Both the position numbers and the translations under genes were made by a program. From sequence record PZ445432.1: 64,000 nucleotides of DNA. One strand, given 5' to 3'. The notes below the pieces were generated by a model. That model did not search any database and was not told where the DNA came from. It saw only the letters and a list, made by a program, of their open reading frames with translations. Positions 2,016 to 54,548 of the stretch are shown one piece after another. The number at the start of each line of letters is the position of its first letter. Within the stretch, counting starts at the first letter, position 1. This DNA comes from a phage.

Positions 2016-3226
2016 TGGGTTTTAAAAGCTGGATTACTGAAAAGCTAAATCCGGGTCAACGTATTATAAGAGACATGGAACCAGTTAGTCATCGCACTAA
2101 CCGTAAGCCTTTTACCACTGGGCAAGCCTATAGCAAGATTGAGATTCTCAATCGAACTGCCAATATGGTTATAGATAGTGCGGCGGAGTGTTCTTATACT
2201 GTCGGAGATAAATATAATATTGTTACGTACGCTAATGGCGTCAAAACAAAGACTCTAGACACTCTCTTAAATGTACGACCTAATCCATTCATGGATATAA
2301 GCACATTCCGTAGACTTGTAGTCACTGACCTACTTTTTGAAGGTTGTGCATACATCTATTGGGATGGCACAGCACTTTACCACGTCCCGGCTGCTCTTAT
2401 GCAGGTCGAGGCAGATGCCAATAAGTTTATCAAAAAATTTACATTTAATAATCAGATAGACTATCGCGTAGATGAGATTATCTTTATAAAGGATAACAGT
2501 TACGTGTGTGGCACAAATTCTCAAATTTCTGGACAATCTCGTGTTGCTACTGTTATTGATTCTCTTGAGAAGCGTTCTAAGATGCTTAACTTTAAAGAGA
2601 AATTCCTCGATAACGGAACCGTGATTGGTCTTATTCTTGAGACGGATGAAATCCTGAACAAGAAATTGCGTGAGCGTAAACAAGAAGAATTACAACTCGA
2701 TTATAATCCTAGTACTGGTCAGTCTACTGTCCTGATTCTAGATGGTGGTATGAAAGCAAAACCGTACTCCCAAATATCCTCTTTTAAAGATCTAGACTTT
2801 AAGGAAGACATCGAAGGATTTAATAAATCCATCTGTCTTGCCTTTGGTGTTCCGCAAGTGTTACTTGATGGTGGTAATAATGCTAACATTCGACCAAACA
2901 TCGAATTGTTCTATTATATGACCATCATTCCTATGCTGAACAAACTGACTAGTTCTCTTACTTTCTTTTTTGGTTATAAGATCACTCCTAATACTAAGGA
3001 AGTCGCAGCATTAACACCAGATAAAGAAGCAGAGGCTAAACATTTAACCTCATTGGTTAATAATGGTATTATAACCGGTAACGAAGCTCGTTCAGAGCTG
3101 AACCTTGAGCCTTTAGATGATGAGCAGATGAATAAGATCCGTATTCCTGCTAACGTCGCTGGTTCTGCAACAGGTGTATCTGGTCAAGAAGGTGGTAGAC
3201 CTAAAGATTCCACCGAGGGAGATTAA
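2015..3226 (+). CDS. portal protein (pb7-like)
   Basis: 403-aa ORF directly after terminase/HNH; size and position match the T5 portal. Confidence 0.75.
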   Translation: MGFKSWITEKLNPGQRIIRDMEPVSHRTNRKPFTTGQAYSKIEILNRTANMVIDSAAECSYTVGDKYNIVTYANGVKTKTLDTLLNVRPNPFMDISTFRRLVVTDLLFEGCAYIYWDGTALYHVPAALMQVEADANKFIKKFTFNNQIDYRVDEIIFIKDNSYVCGTNSQISGQSRVATVIDSLEKRSKMLNFKEKFLDNGTVIGLILETDEILNKKLRERKQEELQLDYNPSTGQSTVLILDGGMKAKPYSQISSFKDLDFKEDIEGFNKSICLAFGVPQVLLDGGNNANIRPNIELFYYMTIIPMLNKLTSSLTFFFGYKITPNTKEVAALTPDKEAEAKHLTSLVNNGIITGNEARSELNLEPLDDEQMNKIRIPANVAGSATGVSGQEGGRPKDSTEGD

Positions 3227-41434: not shown

Positions 41435-41461
41435 ATTTCTTCCTTATCAATTTATATAAAT

Positions 41462-41490
41462 ATTATAGCAAGTATTTAAGCATTTAGCAA
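41462..41490 (-). promoter_or_regulatory. early promoter TTGCTA-17-TATAAT inside the spacer between the two ligase genes
   Basis: hexamers read on the minus strand; leader ATTTATATAAATTGATAAGGAAG. Confidence 0.6.
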
Positions 41491-45188: not shown

Positions 45189-45431
45189 TTATGATTCTTT
45201 GAGCAAAGAAGAAAGTTCAGCATATACTTTATCTAACTCAAACCCTATGCGAAGAGATACGTTAGTCCTCCGTTGTTTAAGTAACCACTCGGATATGTTA
45301 GGGATGCCAGCTAGTCTAGCAGGAACCACCCTACATAGCTTCTCCGAAGTATCATAAACAGGGACTTTACGTTCTTTTACTGGAAACTTCCTTGTTTCCC
45401 ATTTTTTATTCTTCACTGTCATTTCTAGCAC
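45189..45431 (-). CDS. hypothetical protein
   Basis: 80-aa basic ORF. Confidence 0.4.
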   Translation of the reverse strand: MLEMTVKNKKWETRKFPVKERKVPVYDTSEKLCRVVPARLAGIPNISEWLLKQRRTNVSLRIGFELDKVYAELSSLLKES

Positions 45432-48195
45432 CTAGCTCTGACATTGCTTCTTCTGCCATAGCCTTCTCTTCCTCTGTCATGAATTTGAAAGGAATTGGCA
45501 TACACTCGATTTTACAATAGGTTCTGTACCAGTCTACGATATTCTCCGTGTTCATATCTTTACCAATACCCATCATACCAAGATACATTCTAGCATATTT
45601 TGGGTTAGCACTCTGGCCTGTTTTAAGGAAGAAATCCTTTTTCTTACCTTTTAGAGCTTCTATGAATGGTTTAATGGTTACATTTGAACACTTCTTAATG
45701 TCTTCCCAGAACATCTCGTGCATCTTATGAAAGAATGCAGCTCGATCATTTGGTTTATCTTTGATATATTGTTCAACATGCTCAACTGTTACATCTTTAA
45801 TAGACTCAAGATGATAATAGCGAACAATAAGTAGTTTAGCTTCATACGCATCAGCATGACGTGGAGCACAATAATCCGGAGTTGAATGTAGAATAGCTTT
45901 GATTCGCTCTTCTGTGTACTCTTTACCAGCACCTTCAATAGTTCCCCAGCTTTCACTGAAAATATCAATAGTTGCACCCTGATCAAGCAAGTAATAACGT
46001 AAAGTACTAGTATAGTTCCTAGATTCCAGCTCCCTGCGACGTGCGTATAATTGCTGTGCTAACTCCAGCCAACCCTCATCAATGTTATACTGTTCAGAAC
46101 CTGCGGAGAATCCACTCGTAGATTTATCAATAAAATAATAAATGTTCTGAGCGCCACGGTCGCGCCTGATTGCTTGGAAACGCATGTTTGGCGCTTGATT
46201 ACTGGTTCTAGTAATAACAAATACGTTATCAAAATAGTTGAAGTCAACTCCACTCGTTACGGATGGACTACATAATAAGCAATCAATTTGTTGATCAATT
46301 AGCTCATTAGTTGTGTAATCCAGAATACGTCTAATATCCACATCTGATGTGGAGTTTGAGTGGATTTCCTTAACTAACGCACCAGTATTACGACGTAGTG
46401 CCATGCCCTTCTCATTCAGCTCATCAGGGCCACAATCAGATACTAGAATAGATTTCTCACCCATCTCTAGAGAAGTCTGAAGTGCAACCCAAATACTGGA
46501 TTCATCGGGGAACTCATAAGCGTGAGCTTTTGACAGCATTTTACGGTGATGATTATAAAATGCTACTGGTTTATCGAACTCAATCAAAGAACCATATGCT
46601 TCAATTGTTTCAGCACTAATATCACCATCGGATAGTATAATGATTTTTGCAGTTGCAAGAATATCACGAAGAACCTGAATACACTCGCGACGTTGCTTAA
46701 CAACTGGGGCGAATAATAGGTCATTCATTACTGCATCACATTCATCGATAAAGATTGCATCAATTTGACCAATAAAACTCTTAAACTTATGTAAAGAGTG
46801 GATAGTTGTGGACATACGGTCAATAGCACCACGCTTAAAATTAAGCATATCTACAGACTTATCATATTGTCCTGCACTAAATTTCTTGGCATTTGAAGAC
46901 ACCAGTGCCCTAGTATTGGTAATTGCTAAGAAATTACCTTTAATAACTCCTGAATCTAACCAACGCACAACTGCCGTGGTTTTACCTGTACCTAGACTTG
47001 CTTTTACAAAAGTCATATAACCTTCTGGTGGTACAGTGTTTAATTTCAAGAAGTTATCAGTTTCTAGAGAATTAGTTTCTAATTTTTTAAGTGGAACACC
47101 TTTTAATACTTCTGGGATCTCACGCTTAGAGTTATTAACAAAGGCTTTTAATGCCTGTTTTCGACCGTTATTAAAATAATCTTGAATATTACGACTATTA
47201 TCTTTAGTTGCAATATACTCAGATAAAGCTGGGCGGATCTCCTTCTCTAGCCAACCAAAATCTACACCATCCTCTAACGCTCGGTGATATAGCTTTGGAA
47301 TAATACGTAGATATACACCATCCTCAGCCTCTTCTAACTCGCTAATGGTTTCTTCTACTTTATCAGAAGCAATCTTTTTGCCTTTAATTTGATCGAGTAA
47401 AGAGTAGAATTCCTCTTTAAACTCCCCTCTAGTTGTTTCATAGTCAACCAGATTATTAGGTAAATTTACTTTAGAACCCTTAACAAATACCAGACGTGAA
47501 GCACCCTCCGCTTTAAACGGATCAACTATACCATCAGTAAATAAAGGATCTGCAAAGTAATGGAGCTGTACGGAAGAGTAATAAGCTAAGTCGGCAATAT
47601 CAAAGCCATACTTTTGTCTACTACTTTCATTGATAGATGTAAATAAGAACTTGATCTGACCCTGTGTAACTTTAACATTAGATTCTAGTATTAAGTGCAT
47701 TCGGATACCTGGTTTTAGTCCAGCCGAAGACGATGCATGAGCAATAAACCCTGCATCAAGAGGAAACATATCCTCACTAATACTATTCAACATTCTAATA
47801 ATATGACGCGCCATGCCAACAAGATCAAACTTGTTACAACCTCCTGTATCTACAATACCATCCACGTCCATTGCAATTATATGACTTGGGTTAGATACAT
47901 TAAAGTTGTCCTTCTTACGCCGCACATTATTTTTAGGTGCAAGACATCGACCTCGTACCGCAACGATATGGGGGTCAGACGTTAAACGTCTCATAAGAGG
48001 GAGCATTTCTACTAGGGTTTGAGGATCAACTTCATCAATTACATCAAACTTGAAGGGCATTGAAGCTGGTTTACCTTCAGGATGCTTTGAGGAAAATCTT
48101 TTAGCAAAAAGATAATCTTCTGCTTTAACTTCTCGCCAATTGCCCGTGGCTAAATCGCGATGAAATCCTGCATGACCTTGTAGGATTGAGAACAC
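45406..48195 (-). CDS. replication origin-binding protein-like SF2 helicase (herpesvirus UL9-type)
   Basis: Walker A GTGKTT, Walker B DECD and downstream helicase motifs; start placed at GTG 48195 (GGAG 8 nt upstream); the ORF is open to 48393 but that extra N-terminal stretch is hydrophobic and has no RBS. Confidence 0.7.
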   Translation of the reverse strand: MFSILQGHAGFHRDLATGNWREVKAEDYLFAKRFSSKHPEGKPASMPFKFDVIDEVDPQTLVEMLPLMRRLTSDPHIVAVRGRCLAPKNNVRRKKDNFNVSNPSHIIAMDVDGIVDTGGCNKFDLVGMARHIIRMLNSISEDMFPLDAGFIAHASSSAGLKPGIRMHLILESNVKVTQGQIKFLFTSINESSRQKYGFDIADLAYYSSVQLHYFADPLFTDGIVDPFKAEGASRLVFVKGSKVNLPNNLVDYETTRGEFKEEFYSLLDQIKGKKIASDKVEETISELEEAEDGVYLRIIPKLYHRALEDGVDFGWLEKEIRPALSEYIATKDNSRNIQDYFNNGRKQALKAFVNNSKREIPEVLKGVPLKKLETNSLETDNFLKLNTVPPEGYMTFVKASLGTGKTTAVVRWLDSGVIKGNFLAITNTRALVSSNAKKFSAGQYDKSVDMLNFKRGAIDRMSTTIHSLHKFKSFIGQIDAIFIDECDAVMNDLLFAPVVKQRRECIQVLRDILATAKIIILSDGDISAETIEAYGSLIEFDKPVAFYNHHRKMLSKAHAYEFPDESSIWVALQTSLEMGEKSILVSDCGPDELNEKGMALRRNTGALVKEIHSNSTSDVDIRRILDYTTNELIDQQIDCLLCSPSVTSGVDFNYFDNVFVITRTSNQAPNMRFQAIRRDRGAQNIYYFIDKSTSGFSAGSEQYNIDEGWLELAQQLYARRRELESRNYTSTLRYYLLDQGATIDIFSESWGTIEGAGKEYTEERIKAILHSTPDYCAPRHADAYEAKLLIVRYYHLESIKDVTVEHVEQYIKDKPNDRAAFFHKMHEMFWEDIKKCSNVTIKPFIEALKGKKKDFFLKTGQSANPKYARMYLGMMGIGKDMNTENIVDWYRTYCKIECMPIPFKFMTEEEKAMAEEAMSELGARNDSEE

Positions 48196-48791
48196 AACAA
48201 TACTCCTGTGTTGGAAATGAAATAAGTTTTCTTTAGGACTATTCAGAAAGAATAGAACAACTGTTACTGTCAATTTCTCAACAATTAATCGCAAATACTG
48301 AAGTGGGGTGGCAACTTCCACTTTCACGCTGCGCTGCTGCCTCATTATACCGCACAAATCCTTGAGGATGGCCGCTAAGCCGGATTTGCTCACCTAATGC
48401 TTCATATACTAGCTCATACTAGATGCAATATAACTTACAGAATCACGTCTCGGTAGTTTTTCACTCCTCCCATCTCACTTCACAACCACCTCATACTAGG
48501 TTGCTTCGAGGCCTTACCAGGGTTCCTATGGGACGCAGATCGCTAAGTATTCTATTAACTATTTGTTTAAAAACTAACACGTAACAGTTAAAACAACCCT
48601 TAATGGGGCAGCCTAACTGTTCCGTATCGCGGATTGTAAACAAGAAAAAACTTTTTCGTAAAGCTCTAGCAACGTACCTTATGCAGCTATTTACGGGTCA
48701 TCGATTCCTCTCGCCGTAAATCCATTGTCAGCTTCACTAAGAAAAATTAGCAAAATCAATTTTTACTAATGTCTCTCAATTCAATATAAAT

Positions 48792-48820
48792 ATTATAGCA
48801 AGATTTTGAGCATCATGCAA
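48792..48820 (-). promoter_or_regulatory. early promoter TTGCAT-17-TATAAT
   Basis: hexamers read on the minus strand; about 600 nt upstream of the helicase start. Confidence 0.55.
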
Positions 48821-48896
48821 GTAAATTTTTAAGGAGAATGCTATCAGTGTCTTTGAGCACAGTGAAAACCGAGCCAAAATGACTCGGTTATGTGGA

Positions 48897-49091
48897 TTAG
48901 ACACTTAAAATACTTCTAATCTCTTCTATATACTTATCTACTTTTTTAGCATCTATTTTACTTAGTTTTCCTATATCAAAATCAGGATCAGTCAAATATC
49001 TTGCCATAAATTTTACTTGTTTAGCTGAAAGTTGACCCTTATTCCACTTTTTAATTTTACCATAACATACCCAATATTCTTTATTCATCAT
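48897..49091 (-). CDS. hypothetical small Lys-rich protein
   Basis: 64-aa ORF. Confidence 0.35.
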   Translation of the reverse strand: MMNKEYWVCYGKIKKWNKGQLSAKQVKFMARYLTDPDFDIGKLSKIDAKKVDKYIEEIRSILSV

Positions 49092-49473
49092 TTAGTCCCG
49101 AAACATAAATCCCAACACGGTTTAATTGTTCTTTGGCTTCTTTGAGAATATCTGGAGTGTACTCCCAAATATCATCTTCCACCTGTAAAAGATGGGGCGA
49201 ACAACCGTCATCGGGCACACGACATATGGCCAAACCACGTGGATGGAACAAAGAGAAATTTAGTGCAACAATTAAACCCATAGCAGACAACTCATTCCAA
49301 TCCAATTCCCATTCCCTAGCGTAGCCTGATAGGAAAACACCAATACAGGGATCGTCTATTTGCTGCTCCGGAAAAGTAAAGGAGGCTTGTCTTACCCCCA
49401 ACCAACGTTGTAGCAGCTTCTCCGCACGCTTCACCAAACTAGGATCAATCTGACGCCAATATACTTGTTCCAT
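49081..49473 (-). CDS. hypothetical protein, paralog A of a tandem pair
   Basis: shares DDPCIG...W.EL..MGL..ALN..LF.P core with the adjacent ORF. Confidence 0.55.
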   Translation of the reverse strand: MEQVYWRQIDPSLVKRAEKLLQRWLGVRQASFTFPEQQIDDPCIGVFLSGYAREWELDWNELSAMGLIVALNFSLFHPRGLAICRVPDDGCSPHLLQVEDDIWEYTPDILKEAKEQLNRVGIYVSGLNDE

Positions 49474-49482
49474 TGTGCCACC

Positions 49483-49911
49483 TTAGGCAGTTAAACCAGG
49501 AATTTGATAACCAAAACGACGAAGTTTCTGGATACCATCATTTACTTCTTCCGGTGAGTAAGACCAACCGTAATGTTCATCAACTTGAAAGCCAGGAGAT
49601 TCACTGGTTTTATAGTTAACAACAATACGGTGTTTATTGGGCATAAATAGCTTATAGTTTAATGCAAAAACCAACCCCATTTCATCCAGCTCTTTCCAGC
49701 CGACAATCTCTTCCAGACCATCCTCTACCTGCACAACTAGACCAATACACGGGGCCTCATCAATATCATCTTTAAAAGCAAAGGAGATTTCATTATTTTC
49801 ACACCATATTTTCAAGGAGTTAATAGTCTCATTATACAGGCTAGCTGGGAGAGTACGCCAGAAGTTAACCAAAATTGGATTAGCTTCTTTAGAGAATACA
49901 TTATTGAACAT
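49483..49911 (-). CDS. hypothetical protein, paralog B of a tandem pair
   Basis: shares EAPCIG...WKELDEMGLVFALNYKLFMP core with the adjacent ORF. Confidence 0.55.
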   Translation of the reverse strand: MFNNVFSKEANPILVNFWRTLPASLYNETINSLKIWCENNEISFAFKDDIDEAPCIGLVVQVEDGLEEIVGWKELDEMGLVFALNYKLFMPNKHRIVVNYKTSESPGFQVDEHYGWSYSPEEVNDGIQKLRRFGYQIPGLTA

Positions 49912-54262: not shown

Positions 54263-54277
54263 AGAATTTTCACACCT

Positions 54278-54306
54278 ATTATACTAAACATTATCCACTA
54301 TGTCAA
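54278..54306 (-). promoter_or_regulatory. consensus sigma70 promoter TTGACA-17-TATAAT driving the nrdD operon
   Basis: perfect consensus hexamers with 17-nt spacer read on the minus strand. Confidence 0.7.
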
Positions 54307-54443
54307 TTAAAATTTTCTTTCGCCACCTAATACTGTAATATTCCGCGTATAAATAAATGATTATCTAATACCATACATTTCCCGTTAAAAGCAAGCAAAT
54401 TTTTTATTTAAATGCAATATCATAGGCTTATTTAAAATTGTAG

Positions 54444-54472
54444 TTGCTTTTTACTGCATATACTGGTATAAT
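54444..54472 (+). promoter_or_regulatory. early promoter TTGCTT-17-TATAAT driving phoH
   Basis: hexamers read on the plus strand; divergent from the nrdD promoter. Confidence 0.65.
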
Positions 54473-54548
54473 ATATTTGTAAGTTGATAAACAAGATCTC
54501 TTTGTTGATCCTCTGTTAGAAGCGAAGTACACTATAGGAGTGTTATGT

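Follow-up and report, generated by a model that had tools for sequence, protein, structure and literature searches.

Structured leaders that regulate the gene behind them are well described. The E. coli rne 5′UTR (361 nt) and the translational operators of phage T4 gene 32 and gene 43 are structured autoregulatory leaders. Translational autoregulation has classic examples among phage replication proteins, and autoregulation through a structured leader is well established for them and for RNase E. At transcript-activated origins, the ColE1 RNA II is approximately 550 nt long and its correct folding is required. Among phages, T5 is a classical model, with early promoters that serve as standard tools. 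Here we describe the leader of the D2 helicase gene (obp) in a T5-like phage. Comparison across relatives strongly supports the view that this leader is a large conserved multi-helix RNA of the obp-sense (minus) strand. To our knowledge, large structured RNAs of such complexity are rare in bacteria and phages.

The window, that is, the whole 64-kb stretch of DNA analysed, belongs to Escherichia phage HildyBeyeler (Bas33), a T5-like phage of the genus Tequintavirus, and is 100% identical to MZ501074.1 (record position minus 482 gives the window position). The minus strand carries every gene around the gap at 48196–48896. The genes and expression signals at this locus are as follows.

45406–48195, minus strand: obp (T5 gene D2), annotated CDS with a GTG start at 48195, encoding an SF2 replication-initiator-type helicase
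48193–48209, minus strand: obp translation initiation region, ACAGGAG with the SD sequence AGGAG at 48207–48203 and GTG at 48195–48193
48792–48820, minus strand: strong sigma-70 early promoter, −35 TTGCAT at 48820–48815 and −10 TATAAT at 48797–48792
48867–48889, minus strand: rho-independent terminator of the upstream operon, inverted repeat AACCGAGTC / GGCTCGGTT followed by TTTTC
48897–49091, minus strand: small upstream gene of 64 aa, phrog_29527 (E 2e-40), annotated as a CDS in phage HASG4

The obp product matched Pfam Herpes_ori_bp, phrog_3712 ('replication origin binding') and the NCBIfam CyRepA1 plasmid replication family, and its PDB matches were solved UL9-type origin-binding proteins. 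The gene described earlier as an origin-binding helicase is the orthologue of T5 gene D2. The D2 protein of T5 is a biochemically characterised bipolar SF2 helicase for which a replication initiator role has been proposed (PMC3632103). A single-sequence AlphaFold model of the N-terminal 390 aa of D2 had a pLDDT of 35 and was unusable.

The 64-aa gene has no annotation in the Bas33 record, and its stop codon forms the upstream edge of the gap. With obp starting at GTG 48195 and this gene running from 48897, the gap of 701 nt is real. The ORF list confirmed the claim of the earlier note that 48394–48896 contains no ORF of at least 60 aa on either strand. These 503 nt are the longest such stretch in the window, ahead of 343 and 277 nt, so the description of the region as the longest non-coding stretch also stands within the window. 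No ORF conserved in position, frame or length was found in the gap among the relatives compared. Annotation can be corrected in several records, which carry spurious small ORFs in the gap, an N-terminally extended obp, or lack the 64-aa gene.

The terminator element at the head of the gap is also annotated in T5, BF23, HASG4 and Erwinia phage KEY. It is followed on the minus strand by the promoter string AAAAATTTAC-TTGCAT-17 nt-TATAAT. This promoter, assigned to the helicase gene from the sequence in the earlier note, aligns with the 'putative early promoter T5P32' of T5 (AY587007), which lies just past the annotated terminator and approximately 470 nt from obp. The TTGCA-17-TATAAT arrangement is kept in every enterobacterial lineage examined. 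A consensus scan overlooks it because TTGCAT agrees with TTGACA at only 3/6 positions. The same simple scan found no rival minus-strand promoter near 48200. Two internal candidates, TATAAT at 48349–48344 and TTGACA at 48272–48267, were rejected: they have no partner hexamer, are not conserved and lie inside helices. Transcription would start near 48785, giving a leader of approximately 590 nt to GTG 48195, in line with the approximately 580 nt first suggested. No terminator was found between the promoter and obp in the consensus scan of Bas33, nor in T5-like relatives. Because neither a terminator nor a second promoter intervenes, the leader RNA in Bas33 is probably co-transcribed with obp. 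It lies on the same strand as obp, between promoter and start codon, with no intervening terminator or promoter found in the scan. The Proteus phages differ in this respect, with a further promoter, a perfect 12/12 match, downstream of the RNA and 37 nt ahead of obp, so that their obp can be expressed without the leader.

The comparison of relatives supports GTG 48195 with AGGAG as the true obp start. In every lineage the same alignment column holds ATG, GTG or TTG preceded by an SD sequence, and the protein is conserved from this codon onward, with the N-terminus MFSIL.GH. The GTG had already been considered the best-supported start, and the in-frame extension to 48393 had been judged to be probably untranslated. 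The extension lies within covarying RNA helices and has no conserved ORF in other lineages, which agrees with that judgement.

The leader RNA is approximately 490 nt long, or approximately 590 nt with a 97-nt insert, as in Bas33. Its predicted parts, from 5′ to 3′ in window coordinates, are as follows.

48739–48777, minus strand: P1, 5′-terminal hairpin of ~39 nt, starting ~8 nt after the inferred transcription start
48642–48738, minus strand: optional inserted domain of 97 nt with its own branched hairpin, flanked by the 8-nt direct repeat TTTTTCTT
48599–48631, minus strand: M1 hairpin with the near-invariant motif AUACGGAACAGUUAGGCUGCCCCAU (helix 4: 10 pairs, 96% paired, 4 double changes)
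48561–48589, minus strand: 5′ strand of the long-range closing helix (~27 pairs; helix 5: 27 pairs, 11 double changes)
48286–48560, minus strand: core multi-helix domain of ~275 nt, helices 6–21 with junctions and GA-rich internal loops
48354–48389, minus strand: M4 hairpin, a variable, covarying lower stem and a cap with the invariant CUUAGCGG; GGCUUAGCGGCC at 48381–48370
48300–48325, minus strand: M5 hairpin (helix 21) with the conserved loop (A)GUUGCCA(CC)
48259–48285, minus strand: 3′ strand of the long-range closing helix, partner of 48589–48561
48236–48258, minus strand: 3′ hairpin (helix 22), CUAUUC-UUUCU-GAAUAG, ~40 nt before the obp ribosome-binding site

The core comprises a three-way sub-domain (48533–48468), a hairpin with an A-rich loop, a conserved GAGA(A/C)GUG segment, the M4 sub-domain and M5. 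Its conserved motifs are GAUCUG and GAGAAGUG. Three or four loops or segments of the leader RNA are nearly invariant, in particular CUUAGCGG. The 3′ hairpin has no U-run after it and is for that reason not a terminator; it is followed by an A/U-rich linker and then the SD sequence. The earlier note had mentioned several short hairpins in this region. Hairpins do exist, but the description understated what is present, which is one large conserved RNA structure.

The copies of TTTTTCTT that border the insert are at 48746–48739 and 48649–48642. The insert is present or absent among otherwise near-identical leaders. It was found in 51 phage records, at a single place in each, and was 95–100% identical. 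A dispersed mobile element was rejected, as the insert occurs at one place per genome and always at the leader locus.

Three further interactions were considered. The pyrimidine tract just 3′ of P1 is the predicted pairing partner of the obp SD sequence, with a possible 7-bp pairing of UUCUUGU (48646–48640) and ACAGGAG (48209–48203); this helix 1 is weak, with only 2 double-changed pairs. A riboswitch-like switch between GGAACAGUUA in M1 and UAACUGUUAC in the closing helix was rejected, since type B leaders (described below) compensate with the 3′ partner and not with M1, and the alternative pairing is also missing from Erwinia phages. A pseudoknot joining GGCUGC of M1 to GCGGCC in the M4 loop is unsupported, because the Erwinia U-to-C change is already explained by the local M1 hairpin.

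The alignment of the leaders of relatives is a mosaic. The promoter with the first ~50 nt, and the segment 48649–48576, are 88–100% identical among T5-like phages, against ~84% for the neighbouring coding sequence of obp. For the central ~300 nt there are two strongly diverged versions, equal in length. Type A is carried by Bas33, NR01 and fp01, and type B by T5, BF23, AKFV33 and the Epseptimaviruses. Between the two types, 48649–48576 is ~96% identical, compared with ~84% for the obp 5′ coding sequence. In the central part they share only short islands (GAUCUG, GGCUUAGCGGCC), and the stems on either side of these islands differ through compensatory changes. The layout of terminator, TTGCA-17-TATAAT, 470–765 nt of non-coding sequence and obp also occurs in more distant phages, namely Klebsiella Sugarland, Providencia PSTCR5, Proteus Stubb, Pectobacterium DU_PP_V and a relative, and Erwinia KEY and a metagenomic relative. 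These have the same sequence islands. The CUUAGCGG hairpin was found in phages of Escherichia, Salmonella, Klebsiella, Providencia, Proteus, Pectobacterium and Erwinia.

Covariation was evaluated on 15 related sequences from four lineages (type A variants, Erwinia, Pectobacterium and Klebsiella). The conservative cross-lineage consensus from RNAalifold had 44 pairs, 31 of them compensatory. An extended structure, built from the type A and Erwinia sequences and then scored on the full set of 15, contained 144 pairs in 23 helices. The proportion of paired cells was 85.8%, compared with 75.7 ± 0.5% in 500 shuffles and 40–46% in slid controls, in which partners were moved by 1–3 columns. Structure conservation across T5-like genomes had been proposed earlier as a check on the region: 69 of the 144 pairs were double-changed, against 38.6 ± 3.9 in the shuffles (0/500 reached 69) and 24–37 in the slid controls, although the shuffle statistics overstate independence because the 15 sequences are related. 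Doubly changed cells numbered 189 versus 60. The covariation score was 0.318, versus 0.169 in the shuffles and ~0.1 in the slid controls.

The compensations arose independently within type A, between two Erwinia-type leaders and between lineages. Within type A, CUGCG/CGCAG became CUACA/UGUAG, and AGUGG/CCACU became AGGGG/CCCCU. The type B leaders (9 sequences, 93–100% identical) were folded alone and gave 153 pairs, 12 of them compensatory and almost none broken. This independent fold has the same architecture as type A. In the closing helix of type B, a G-to-A change is met by a C-to-U change in the partner, and T5 itself holds the G-U intermediate. The MAFFT alignment was wrong in two places, the 5′ hairpin of leaders with the insert and the 3′ arm of M4; for this reason P1 was tested separately and the M4 stems by a direct stem search. 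In P1, 13 of the 19 predicted pairs were compensatory (10 sequences, 6 lineages). All 8 pairs of helix 19 in M4 were double-changed. The M4 stems differ by lineage around the invariant CUUAGCGG: GCAAAUCC/GGAUUUGU, AAUAGAAUC/GGUUCUAUU, AAUAGAAAU/AUUUCUAUU, CCACAUGG/CUGUGUGG, CCACCU/AGGUGG and GGUAGU/ACUACU.

The paired columns held 311 GU + UG against 51 AC + CA. For the Bas33 sequence, the sense strand had an MFE of −159 kcal/mol (z −2.3) and the antisense strand −125 kcal/mol (z −1.4). The excess of G-U over A-C and the difference in folding energy together assign the fold to the obp-sense transcript. Among the options raised in the earlier note, a structured RNA is the one borne out, by covariation within and between lineages and by the strand-specific G-U pairing.

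These counts bear directly on the view that the gap is only a spacer, a remnant of decayed genes or a place of unannotated small proteins, with hairpins formed by chance. Some records annotate small hypothetical proteins in the gap, and taken alone the Bas33 sequence reaches a thermodynamic z-score of only −2.3. However, no ORF is conserved across lineages, some segments are better conserved than the adjacent coding sequence, and compensatory changes on this massive scale, far above the controls, contradict such a view. We find it scarcely credible.

The RNA, or a long non-coding stretch, immediately precedes obp in the same orientation in Tequintavirus, Epseptimavirus, Klebsiella, Providencia, Proteus, Pectobacterium, Erwinia, Aeromonas and Vibrio phages. 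The Aeromonas phages have a ~1.5-kb non-coding region before obp with three UUAGCGG-capped hairpins. Between two Aeromonas phages, which are 72% identical over the aligned stretch holding the first hairpin, the hairpins are kept with altered stems. From this conservation, the RNA family probably extends to Aeromonas phages. A hairpin with a U-run before obp can be read directly from the Aeromonas sequence; the consensus terminator scan did not report it. The Vibrio phages have 0.7–1.1 kb of non-coding sequence before obp without the motif, and this stretch may not be homologous. In Vibrio phage D433, two terminator-like hairpins lie between this possibly non-homologous stretch and obp. An AT-rich metagenomic relative has no such non-coding region.

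In IMG/VR, the M1 motif was found only in T5-like contigs of ~100–122 kb, once per contig, and few new lineages came out of the metagenome scan. With a covariance model built on the 146-nt sub-domain 48327–48473 (R1, 13 consensus pairs), the copy in the window was the sole hit. Type B, Providencia and Proteus went undetected, so the model is too weak for remote homology.

The structured part may be a stable ncRNA that acts in trans once released from the early transcript; RNase III, cutting the ~27-bp closing helix, or RNase E would be candidate enzymes for the release. It would then be a scaffold, sponge or decoy for a protein that binds the UUAGCGG loop, serving host take-over, anti-defence or replication, and its place before obp would merely be inherited gene order. 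In size, multi-junction fold, invariant loops, protective hairpin at the 5′ end and end-closing helix, it is closer to large stable RNAs than to mRNA operators, and its promoter is among the strong early ones of the T5 type. The long closing helix would be a plausible RNase III substrate. The separate obp promoter of the Proteus phages, the U-run hairpin of the Aeromonas phages (missed by the scan) and the terminator-like hairpins of Vibrio D433 all point the same way, and the three Aeromonas UUAGCGG hairpins have the repeated-site layout typical of protein-titrating RNAs. On the other hand, no terminator separates the RNA from obp in Bas33 or T5-like relatives, the processing site is a candidate only, and the loop motif is present in just one or two copies in T5-like leaders. 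Neither a second copy nor a trans target of the RNA was found in the 64-kb window. We regard a released ncRNA as possible though, on balance, doubtful.

The RNA directly precedes the sole helicase gene of initiator type, whose relatives are UL9 and CyRepA1, and this position also suggests a replication origin or part of one, in which the structured G-rich RNA would serve as an R-loop or primer or would recruit the D2 helicase. The proposed initiator role of D2 (PMC3632103) fits such a function, and T5 origins have never been mapped at the sequence level. Nanopore coverage of Bas33 suggests bidirectional replication from two origins, whose positions are absent from the text (bioRxiv 10.64898/2026.01.13.699316); this coverage speaks for an origin role, and the missing positions count against it. 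The element lies at 48.5–49% of the T5 genome. Its RNA strand is G-rich, with a plus-strand GC skew of approximately −0.3 at 48300–48600, and the cassette-like replacement of the A and B cores between close relatives recalls replicon specificity determinants. Nevertheless, the element contains no iterons, DnaA-box-like repeats or distinct AT-rich unwinding element. The only repeats in it are short, two-copy and chance-like, unlike those of an iteron-type origin; its GC content is 0.36–0.47, and AT content peaks in the small ORF next to it. The GC skew has no inflection at the element: the cumulative skew is monotonic over 44–52 kb, with extremes at ~24–25 and 54–55 kb that follow gene orientation. 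A promoter for an antisense regulator was not found in the consensus scan, and the many G-U pairs clearly show selection for an RNA fold, not for sites in duplex DNA. We consider an origin at this site quite unlikely.

A wider proposal, rather unlikely in our judgement, has two forms. The RNA may be the cis-acting heart of the T5-like primary origin, where the folded, G-rich transcript of the strong early promoter would recruit D2 through its UUAGCGG-type loops or would form an R-loop or primer at which bidirectional replication begins, the A and B cores being interchangeable origin-specificity cassettes. Alternatively, it may represent a new class of large protein-binding phage RNA akin to ROOL and GOLLD, here carried by a model phage that is open to genetics.

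Our preferred reading, to which we give an even chance, is that the leader RNA acts mainly in cis and sets the amount of D2 made. The strong early promoter at 48792–48820 would produce a folded RNA that forms the 5′ leader of the D2 helicase mRNA. The invariant loops look like protein-recognition sites, and D2 itself or another early protein may bind them. Further control may come from folding, from cleavage at the long closing helix, or from the weak GTG initiation region being occluded. Several observations count against this cis role, namely the Proteus second promoter, the Vibrio D433 hairpins, the weak covariation of the SD/anti-SD pairing, and a 500-nt multi-junction RNA whose complexity far exceeds that of known translational operators. 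Synteny with obp supports it only weakly, because gene order is conserved throughout the phage family.

Scans for tRNAs and ncRNAs, also suggested in the earlier note, gave no match in the region. Rfam 15 cmscan of 47500–49500 at E up to 10 had no match inside 48196–48896, and a scan of eight related loci at E up to 1 had none in the leaders. The unmatched classes included riboswitches, T-box, leaders, ribozymes, RNase P, 6S, tmRNA, GOLLD/ROOL/OLE/raiA and group I/II introns. ARAGORN found 0 tRNA or tmRNA genes in the whole window. No description of such an RNA, be it as leader, ncRNA or origin of T5, turned up in full-text literature searches. The element constitutes a new RNA family within a known category, that of large structured leaders or ncRNAs.

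A covariation-supported RNA of ~500 nt lies directly before the D2 gene and is absent from Rfam and from the literature searched. This placement and the covariation support make it a testable handle on the start of T5 replication and on the control of D2. The phages grow on E. coli K-12, and RNA-seq (20 min post infection) and replication-coverage data for Bas33 are deposited (PRJEB101990).

The T5-like RNA can be compared with three groups of known systems. Like ColE1 RNA II, T4 oriF/oriG and the T7 primary origin, it has a strong promoter, a structured G-rich transcript of several hundred nucleotides and replication genes as neighbours. It differs from these transcript-activated origins in that no unwinding element, RNA I-like antisense gene or iterons were detected at the locus; its transcript continues into a protein-coding gene, and an origin role is putative here.

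Like the rne and T4 gene 32 and 43 leaders, it is a structured 5′ UTR RNA of a gene for a nucleic-acid enzyme, with conserved hairpins as candidate protein-binding sites. Compared with the T4 operators, however, the T5-like leader is much larger, with ~20 helices and a long-range closing helix. It has no sequence or Rfam similarity to the rne and T4 leaders, binding by D2 is only putative, and some relatives have an obp promoter downstream of it.

GOLLD, ROOL, OLE and raiA resemble it in a length of several hundred nucleotides, many covarying helices, invariant loops, phage encoding and the lack of a known function. The Rfam search at E up to 10 gave no match to them, and the RNA is not tRNA-adjacent, the window having 0 tRNA genes. 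Unlike these RNAs, the T5-like RNA is fixed upstream of a replication gene and is restricted to one phage family.

The core of the leader, the structured non-coding RNA between the early promoter and the helicase gene obp, measures approximately 300 nt and occurs in two versions, type A in HildyBeyeler and type B in T5, BF23, AKFV33 and the Epseptimaviruses. The two are of the same length and hardly alignable, as compared over the following segments.

48269-48575 (-), type A core in the window
2167-2427 of the T5 locus, type B core

Phages that differ in core version shared 96-100% identity in the flanks, and the switch points between A and B fall within the conserved long-range closing helix. 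The difference between A and B is a cassette-like replacement.

The leader also contains an optional block, whose edges are an 8-nt direct repeat, TTTTTCTT.

48642-48738 (-), optional 97-nt block

This block was found in 51 phage records at 95-100% identity and never at any other locus, and its carriers include type A as well as type B leaders. It looks like an extra RNA domain swapped horizontally, or like the trace that an insertion left behind.

The regions upstream of the leader were compared in L017, L013, L026, L030 and L075. In some relatives (AKFV33-type, S132), a different promoter is joined at the same point, directly 5′ of GAGAGACAUUAG. An HNH homing endonuclease gene lies directly upstream in S132, and the first ~55 nt of the leader are present as a duplicated copy in L030. 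Because of these swapped promoters, the HNH gene and the duplication, we infer that the promoter-proximal edge of the leader is a recombination hot spot. Salmonella phage oselot has an annotated repeat_region, which enlarges the 3′ strand of the 5′-terminal hairpin P1.

1636-1666 of the oselot locus, threefold tandem GCTAATTTT

Of several other records, oselot and 26175IV annotate obp with an upstream extension into the leader, and tiny ORFs are annotated inside the leader region in GEC_vB_N5 and Vibrio D433. One gene is absent from the HildyBeyeler annotation.

48897-49091 (-), 64-aa gene, phrog_29527

Two other sites in the window were recorded.

54263-54539, ORF-free stretch of 277 nt, the second-longest internal one, between the divergent nrdD and PhoH-like genes
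41454-41472 (+ coordinates), 19-nt exact copy of 48784-48802, which spans the -10 region and start of the leader promoter

At the former, cumulative GC skew across the window reaches its minimum; the site is a candidate for a further regulatory or origin region. The latter, being an exact copy, points to another early promoter of the kind that precedes the leader. ARAGORN detected no tRNA genes in the 64 kb (1-64000). T5-like phages carry tRNA clusters; that of HildyBeyeler must sit outside the window.

Non-coding stretches before obp were also located in Vibrio and Aeromonas phages.

628-1728 of L039 (Vibrio JSF10), 1073-1800 of L041, and L040, Vibrio Demerecviridae
19-1608 of L042 (Aeromonas TS3), and L061, gene-free, ~1.5 kb

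The Vibrio stretches are 0.7-1.1 kb long and higher in G+C, with a strong promoter 5′ and obp 3′; neither the CUUAGCGG motif nor an Rfam match was found in L039, L040 or L041. In D433, the stretch is followed by two tandem terminators, and the ORFs annotated inside it are only 29-55 aa. In the Aeromonas stretch, UUAGCGG caps three hairpins, and a long hairpin with a U-run lies ~80 nt 5′ of obp. This stretch may be related to the T5 leader RNA, in a far larger form.
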